Assembly: GCF_003790525.1 (NCBI RefSeq)
Contig: NZ_CP033635.1
Reading direction: 5' to 3' (one strand)
Length of the DNA: 64,000 nt
Source: Escherichia coli
GTDB taxonomy: Bacteria; Pseudomonadota; Gammaproteobacteria; Enterobacterales; Enterobacteriaceae
The notes under the pieces are model-generated. The model made no database searches. It had not been told where the DNA came from and saw only the letters and a program-made list of their open reading frames with translations. The position numbers and the translations under genes are program-made. Below are positions 58,974 through 60,494 of the stretch, one piece after another (positions within the stretch are counted from its first letter, which is position 1; every line of letters begins with the position of its first letter).

Positions 58974-60398
58974 ATGCAACATAAGTTACTGATTAACGGA
59001 GAACTGGTTAGCGGCGAAGGGGAAAAACAGCCTGTCTATAATCCGGCAACGGGGGACGTTTTACTGGAGATTGCCGAGGCATCCGCAGAACAGGTGGATG
59101 CTGCTGTTCGCGCGGCAGATGCAGCATTTGCCGAATGGGGGCAAACCACGCCAAAAGCGCGTGCGGAATGCCTGCTGAAACTGGCGGATGTTATCGAAGA
59201 AAATGGTCAGGTTTTTGCCGAACTGGAATCCCGTAATTGTGGCAAACCGCTGCATAGTGCGTTCAATGATGAAATTCCGGCGATTGTCGATGTTTTTCGC
59301 TTTTTCGCGGGTGCGGCGCGCTGTCTGAATGGTCTGGCGGCAGGTGAATATCTTGAAGGTCATACTTCGATGATCCGTCGCGATCCGTTGGGGGTTGTGG
59401 CTTCTATCGCACCGTGGAATTATCCGCTGATGATGGCAGCGTGGAAACTGGCTCCGGCGCTGGCGGCAGGGAACTGCGTAGTGCTTAAACCATCAGAAAT
59501 TACCCCGCTGACCGCGTTGAAGTTGGCTGAGCTGGCGAAAGATATCTTCCCGGCAGGCGTGATTAACGTACTGTTTGGCAGAGGCAAAACGGTGGGCGAT
59601 CCGCTGACCGGACATCCCAAAGTGCGGATGGTGTCGTTGACGGGCTCTATCGCCACCGGCGAGCACATCATCAGCCATACCGCGCCGTCCATTAAGCGTA
59701 CTCATATGGAACTTGGTGGTAAAGCGCCAGTGATTGTTTTTGATGATGCGGATATTGAAGCAGTGGTCGAAGGTGTACGTACTTTTGGCTATTACAATGC
59801 TGGACAGGATTGTACTGCGGCTTGTCGGATCTACGCGCAAAAAGGCATTTACGATACGCTGGTGGAAAAACTCGGTGCTGCGGTGGCAACGTTAAAATCT
59901 GGTGCACCGGATGACGACTCTACGGAGCTTGGACCTTTAAGCTCGCTGGCGCATCTCGAACGCGTCAGCAAGGCGGTAGAAGAGGCGAAAGCGACAGGGC
60001 ACATCAAAGTGATCACTGGCGGTGAAAAGCGCAAGGGTAATGGCTATTACTATGCGCCGACGCTGCTGGCTGGCGCATTACAGGACGATGCCATCGTGCA
60101 AAAAGAGGTATTTGGTCCGGTAGTGAGTGTTACGCTCTTCGACAACGAAGAACAGGTGGTGAACTGGGCAAATGACAGCCAGTACGGACTTGCATCCTCG
60201 GTATGGACGAAAGATGTGGGCAGGGCGCATCGCGTCAGCGCGCGGCTGCAATATGGTTGTACCTGGGTCAATACCCATTTCATGCTGGTAAGTGAAATGC
60301 CGCACGGTGGGCAGAAACTTTCTGGTTACGGCAAGGATATGTCACTTTATGGGCTGGAGGATTACACCGTCGTCCGCCACGTCATGGTTAAACATTAA
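58974..60398 (+). CDS. patD: gamma-aminobutyraldehyde dehydrogenase
   Basis: 474-aa ORF; aldehyde dehydrogenase family with catalytic Cys in [11 protein letters not shown]. Confidence 0.92.
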
Positions 60399-60437
60399 GG
60401 ATAATATTGCAGATCGTAATAGTATGAGATGATCTTG

Positions 60438-60472
60438 CGTACTGTCAGAGCACTGATTTCTCTGACAGTACG
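60438..60472. terminator. long perfect hairpin between convergent patD and yncL
   Basis: 13-bp arms cgtactgtcagag / ctctgacagtacg with a 9-nt loop; no flanking U-run on either strand. Confidence 0.5.
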
Positions 60473-60494
60473 TGCTGCGTGCAAAATCACTACA

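Follow-up and report, generated by a model that had tools for sequence, protein, structure and literature searches.

Dar and Sorek (2018, PMC6061677, NAR 46:6797) described Rho-dependent transcripts of E. coli with precise steady-state 3' ends, which lie directly past stable stem-loops devoid of U-rich tails, while termination occurs farther downstream; PNPase and RNase II trim the RNA to the stem-loop, and C is enriched over G in the sequence after these structures. Adams et al. (2021, PMC7815308), who cite Wang et al. (2019, PNAS) for protective 3' stem-loops as well, state that Rho-terminated transcripts are typically processed by 3'-to-5' exonucleases. The collision-type overlapping bidirectional terminators form another class, which was proposed for convergent genes of E. 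coli and is described as unlike the intrinsic terminators and independent of Rho (Ju et al. 2019; Wang et al. 2022, bioRxiv 10.1101/2022.10.23.513370).

The hairpin between the patD and yncL genes of E. coli is a real, conserved and functional-looking element and an ordinary member of a described class; its probable role is that of a protective 3' stem-loop on a Rho-terminated yncL mRNA. A stable stem-loop just before a sharp mapped end, the lack of a U-tail or A-tract, and read-through into a downstream Rho region that is sensitive to bicyclomycin (BCM) are the features that the yncL hairpin shares with the transcripts of Dar and Sorek, and these are the grounds on which we read it in this way; the composition of the sequence after it (C/G 1.86) tends in the same direction, with a mild bias. 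It is unlike them in that its stem is longer and more perfect than needed, that it is palindromic between convergent genes and could serve both strands, and that the exonuclease dependence of its end is presumed.

The window, i.e. the whole stretch of E. coli DNA that was analysed (64,000 nucleotides), contains the gene order patD-yncL-ortT-ydcY, and the 141 nt that span the patD-yncL intergenic region are 99.3% identical to K-12 MG1655. Published coordinates were transferred by anchoring the window on the patD stop (60398 = 1517002), so that a window position plus 1,456,604 gives the position in NC_000913.3. The features discussed below are collected in the table.

Table. Features of the patD-yncL intergenic region and its surroundings (positions in the window)
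Feature	Position	Strand	Remarks
patD CDS	58974-60398	+	convergent with yncL; its stop precedes the hairpin by 39 nt (+ strand)
Read-through tail antisense to the patD 3' end	60149-60437	-	ends at the peak of the bicyclomycin-sensitive Rho region
Steady-state 3' end of the yncL transcript	60435 (NC_000913.3 1517039)	-	Term-seq; 3 nt past the stem, ...CUCUGACAGUACGCAA-3'
Left arm of the hairpin	60438-60450		CGTACTGTCAGAG; read on the yncL (-) strand, the 3' side of the stem
Loop of the hairpin	60451-60459		+ strand, CACTGATTT; yncL strand, AAAUCAGUG
Right arm of the hairpin	60460-60472		CTCTGACAGTACG; read on the yncL strand, the 5' side of the stem
yncL CDS	60495-60590	-	31 aa, stress-response small membrane protein; its stop precedes the hairpin by 22 nt (- strand)

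A reading of the window made from the sequence alone had noticed a long perfect hairpin with 13-bp arms in the gap between two convergent genes, had called its stem unusually long and perfect, and had remarked on the missing U-tract. The opposite orientation of patD and yncL was confirmed, and the rest of this description was borne out by the repeat finder, which returned two arms of 13 nt, 100% complementary and separated by a spacer of 9 nt, and by the sequences past the stem: the 8 nt that follow it contain 1 U on the yncL strand (CAAGAUCA) and 3 U on the patD strand (UGCUGCGU), so that neither strand carries a U-tract by the criterion used for intrinsic terminators (at least 5 U among the 8 nt past the stem). 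Among perfect hairpins of at least 13 bp with loops of 3-12 nt it is the sole one in the 64-kb window, and 30 dinucleotide shuffles yielded none. Folded alone, the hairpin reaches -19.7 kcal/mol (+ strand) or -20.5 kcal/mol (- strand). Compared with its dinucleotide shuffles, the whole 96-nt intergenic region has the better fold, with z = -2.4 (+) and z = -3.4 (-); none of the 200 shuffles matched the - strand fold. Thus, the hairpin is beyond what would be expected by chance, because the intergenic fold beats the shuffles and the stem has no equal either in the window or in shuffled sequence. The G+C content of the stem is 54%, the scan for terminators gave no match at the hairpin, and no A-tract precedes the stem, the 5' flank being GCAGCA. 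Downstream of the hairpin on the yncL strand the first 60 nt are rich in C and poor in G (C/G 1.86, with values of 1.0-1.85 across 400 nt), which amounts to a mild bias. Two other candidate features of this segment were discarded: a 35-aa open reading frame across the palindrome (MILRTVRALISLTVRAACK..., 60429-60536, + strand), whose ATG is replaced by AAG in most other lineages of E. coli and Escherichia and which is almost certainly no gene, and a promoter within the hairpin, for which the 9/12 match on the - strand (60448 to 60421) is weak and no better than expected from shuffling.

Mapping of 3' ends, which had been proposed as a check of the sequence-only reading, is available in published form and shows a strong end at the hairpin on the yncL strand. 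The Term-seq data of Adams et al. (PMC7815308, Supplementary file 1) contain a 3' end at 1517039 (-) with average counts of 75,264.6 in LB at OD 0.4 and 536,300 in LB at OD 2.0, and the same end is present in the M63 sheet too, i.e. in all three conditions. The end is thus about 7-fold higher in stationary phase, a rise that fits the induction of yncL in stationary phase or stress known from published work. Adams et al. label it 'antisense to patD'; it sits 60 nt from the yncL stop, beyond what we take to be the 50-nt limit for a 'primary' 3' end. On the + strand the Term-seq lists (PMC7815308) contain no 3' end between 1517000 and 1517099; patD may be poorly expressed under the three conditions. 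A region of Rho termination was reported in the same work on the - strand, with its peak at 1516753 (= 60149), about 286 nt downstream of the hairpin (PMC7815308, Supplementary file 2). Its score, from DirectRNA-seq with and without BCM, is 16.6 (p = 5e-21), and the reads upstream and downstream number 220 and 9 without BCM, and 106 and 72 with BCM; as the score is derived from windows of 800 nt, it is coarse and the start of the read-through cannot be placed.

The mechanism that we propose on this basis is as follows. Polymerase coming from yncL would run past the hairpin, which offers no U-tract for release, and would continue antisense into the 3' end of patD until terminated by Rho within roughly 300 nt. 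Exonucleases acting from the 3' end, which in the published model are PNPase and RNase II, would then trim the unstructured tail up to the 13-bp stem, leaving a uniform end with a 3-nt overhang, too short for an exonuclease to engage again, and the yncL mRNA would be stabilised. Accepting this scheme implies that the read-through RNA begins at the yncL promoter, that the end at 1517039 is created by exonucleases and that the stem stabilises the yncL mRNA, all of which we regard as plausible deductions. The antisense-patD RNA induced by bicyclomycin could alternatively originate from a cryptic promoter and not from yncL. Judging from a putative -10-like element, CTATAC at about 60621-60626 (-), the yncL transcript would be ~180 nt long. 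Owing to its symmetry, the palindrome could in addition cap RNA from the opposite strand, namely patD transcripts at times of patD expression. Among the functions suggested for the hairpin by the sequence-only reading was an RNase III or processing site, and this is the suggestion that came closest to the evidence, with one half of it retained: the hairpin fits as the stop point of 3'-to-5' trimming, not as a site cut by RNase III.

In Escherichia the stem is maintained by compensating substitutions. An alignment of 10 distinct sequences (4 alleles of E. coli and representatives of 6 Escherichia species) has 96.7% of its stem cells in standard pairs, a share that drops to 21-57% once the partner columns are shifted by 1-3 positions. 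Compensatory double changes across the Escherichia species were found at 4 pairs, three of them basal and one internal; examples include CGT/ACG replaced by CAC/GTG, and an internal U-A replaced by A-U in E. albertii. None of 500 shuffles reached the observed covariation score, which, given a small sample of related sequences, is supportive and not a statistical proof. The loop varies in sequence and the aligned spacer varies between species from 9 to 11 nt, the stem being kept throughout and reaching 14-16 bp in other Escherichia species. Such a combination of changing loop length and compensatory changes in the arms is expected of an RNA stem, and argues against a binding site for a dimeric DNA-binding protein. 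In the sampled E. coli genomes the left arm of the stem is invariant except for the rare strain E29, where two uncompensated changes at the base of the stem leave 10 bp. A GATC (Dam) site at 60431-60434, part of AGATCT, lies 3 nt left of where the stem starts (60438) and is kept in all aligned Escherichia except E. albertii.

The same alignment bears on the question of which strand is served. In three columns (six cells) the substitutions yield G-U pairs for the patD strand and leave the yncL strand with C-A mismatches; in all species the + strand version of the hairpin is the more stable one, by 1-5 kcal/mol. RNA of patD sense may therefore be under selection as well, or the G-U positions may simply be tolerant. 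Because the G-U changes preserve the pairing on the patD strand and the stem exceeds what protection needs, there is room for another reading, namely that the palindrome is a selected two-strand element that pauses polymerases both ways (a programmed collision or excludon control of yncL versus patD), or a 3' recognition module that makes the yncL RNA dual-function and is bound by a chaperone such as ProQ; we hold this to be unlikely.

The collision-type reading, in which the hairpin pauses both polymerases and head-on and trailing collisions release them without Rho or a U-tract, so that patD and yncL would both end at the palindrome, can be confronted with the genomic context. Like the bidirectional terminators of Ju, Li and Liu (2019), the yncL hairpin lacks intrinsic features and lies between convergent genes, where it reads the same on both strands; moreover, the patD-yncL pair is included in the ExcludonFinder list of convergent pairs with overlapping transcription, and the patD strand, too, gains in pairing from the G-U substitutions. 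Unlike that class, it exhibits a 3' end on one strand, Rho dependence and persistence after its partner has been replaced: the Term-seq end is on the yncL strand only, the downstream read-through on that strand is sensitive to Rho, and the hairpin is retained in genomes without patD or where the upstream + strand gene has a canonical terminator. A segment that encodes a CatB-related O-acetyltransferase stands in place of patD in ~1,100 complete E. coli genomes, the hairpin and yncL being intact; Escherichia sp. MOD1-EC7003 likewise has a CatB-type segment instead of patD, and keeps the hairpin next to yncL. The breakpoint of homology falls in the last codons of patD (TAAACATTAAGG vs TAAATATTAAGG), at about 60390-60425 (loci L002-L005 and L009), and the intergenic stretch beside it diverges more than the hairpin. 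In patD-less E. coli the stem is invariant, and three bases of the loop differ in some genomes (CAC replaced by AGT). In E. albertii the hairpin is preceded on the + strand, at a distance of ~30 nt, by a canonical intrinsic terminator; since the + strand gene has its own terminator, it does not need the hairpin there, and yet the hairpin is retained. Release by collision therefore seems improbable to us, and the sequence-only suggestion of a bidirectional variant of a Rho-independent terminator is, as stated, unsupported, considering the lack of a U-tract, the end on the yncL strand only, at 3 nt, and the Rho region downstream.

The linkage of the protective stem-loop to yncL was followed further by a genome scan that covered one genome per species and used YdcY as the query, YncL (31 aa) being too short for this purpose. 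yncL was found beside ydcY only in six Escherichia species; in other genera the ydcY-ydcZ pair is kept, but yncL, ortT and patD are absent there. A phmmer search with YncL returned 9 matches, and revealed that yncL and ortT, which encodes a toxin of the GhoT/OrtT family (the two genes occupy 60495-60958 here), occur together as a divergent pair in Salmonella-like and Klebsiella-like loci (L090-L093). The behaviour of the yncL-ortT pair is that of a small mobile module. In the Salmonella-like locus L090, which is classified as such by its neighbouring genes only (a srfB-type neighbour), 42 nt past the yncL stop there is a non-homologous perfect 11-bp hairpin, TCGATTATCCG, with a 6-nt loop and no U-tract. 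In the Klebsiella-like loci L091-L093 yncL is followed by a canonical terminator with an A-tract, a GC stem and a U-tract. Among these orthologs it is thus the need for a 3' hairpin that is conserved, and not its sequence or type; the pattern fits the switching between terminator types proposed by Dar and Sorek (PMC6061677). Salmonella STnc1110 is yncL itself, described as an RpoS-dependent 'coding sRNA' (Lago et al. 2017, PMC5437024). It is an orthologous short transcript that encodes YncL, and in the Salmonella-like L090 a long hairpin without a U-tract follows; the hairpin of L090 is not homologous in sequence to that of E. coli. Two database entries deserve a comment. P0002 is an 82-aa variant of YncL, present in at least one public assembly, which has lost its stop, so that translation continues across the 3' UTR with the hairpin and on into antisense patD. 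P0006, one of the 9 matches (L094 and L095; Logan SRR3359617 and ERR1356766), was rejected as a diverged homolog of YncL, as it represents E. coli with essentially every C replaced by T, apparently from bisulfite-converted reads.

The Klebsiella-like terminators raise the question of whether the E. coli stem might itself be a weak, non-canonical intrinsic terminator, which, perhaps with NusA/NusG, releases some polymerases, with Rho as a backstop. The strength of the stem (about -20 kcal/mol), the sharp and abundant 3' end and the canonical terminator of the Klebsiella-like ortholog at the equivalent place would agree with this explanation, and mixed intrinsic/Rho cases are possible transition states according to Dar and Sorek (PMC6061677). 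With a canonical intrinsic terminator the yncL hairpin shares the stem-loop at the end of a gene, but it is unlike one in having no U-tract (1 U among the 8 nt past the stem on the yncL strand), a 9-nt loop, 54% G+C and Rho read-through downstream; the mapped end is 3 nt past the stem and not 7-9 nt, and the scan with the terminator consensus was empty. We therefore find partial intrinsic release rather doubtful.

According to the next explanation, RNase III would cleave either the stem or a duplex arising where the transcripts of patD and yncL overlap. The abundance of yncL mRNA was altered in RNase E and/or RNase III mutants by tiling array and northern (Stead et al. 2011), in a text that names neither the mutant nor the direction, and the listing of patD-yncL as a convergent excludon would be compatible with such a duplex. 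On the other hand, a stem of 13 bp is a short one for this enzyme, the mapped end is found beyond the stem with no staggered cut within it, and the hairpin is kept in genomes free of patD, all of which make cleavage by RNase III very unlikely.

Finally, the possibility of a repeat was addressed by counting copies, the search for the same palindrome elsewhere in the genome having been suggested together with a REP-like element. Queries of 141 nt and 51 nt located the hairpin in 5,411 of the 5,426 complete E. coli genomes, with a median of 1 place per genome and a maximum of 2, always beside yncL in the genomes that carry it; within the window the sequence of the arms has no second exact copy, and all other matches have 2 mismatches. 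Like REP/BIME elements, the yncL hairpin is an extragenic palindrome able to stop 3' exonucleases; unlike them, it is locus-specific, present in a single copy and matches no REP consensus. The sequence-only reading had itself named multiple genomic copies as the sign of a REP-type repeat, and because the element is single-copy the REP interpretation, or that of any other repeat, was dropped. An element acting at the level of DNA (a palindrome or cruciform bound by a protein, or a REP-like or mobile-element repeat) is hardly credible: it would account for the perfect palindrome in the DNA and for its position adjoining the recombination breakpoint at the end of patD, but not for the single copy, the compensatory changes in the arms, the spacer varying from 9 to 11 nt, or an RNA 3' end that maps exactly at the base of the palindrome. 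Each arm contains TACTGT/ACAGTA, which we take to resemble half-sites of LexA; a LexA box was rejected, as the CTG-CAG spacing is 20 nt instead of 10. A scan of the segment 59800-61200 against Rfam with a permissive E-value gave chance matches only, e.g. SNORD41 with E = 5.7, far under the gathering score.

The interpretation of the hairpin as a protective 3' stem-loop of the yncL mRNA has some consequences for annotation. An abundant Term-seq end known only as 'antisense to patD' is now assigned to the yncL mRNA, the 3' boundary of which is thereby defined; this assignment of the 1517039 end appears not to be stated explicitly in the literature that we found. The yncL locus provides a clean example, backed by covariation, of a Rho-type 3' protective stem-loop, and the occurrence of a hairpin or a terminator at the equivalent position in orthologs illustrates how easily the two types of terminator are interchanged. 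Beyond annotation the importance of this finding is small, although it could help anyone who engineers or deletes yncL, patD or ortT.

Another small hairpin is present in the 5' leader of ortT, ~30 nt before its start codon, where ACGCATATTTGCGCGCGT is followed by TTTTATT (60740-60757); this palindrome gives a match on the - strand in the scan for terminators. The Term-seq data of Adams et al. include a weak 'orphan' 3' end on the + strand at 1517357 (about 60753; 848 reads, LB OD 0.4), which falls inside the leader hairpin. An attenuator in the leader of this orphan toxin gene is one possible role of the structure, a processing end another.
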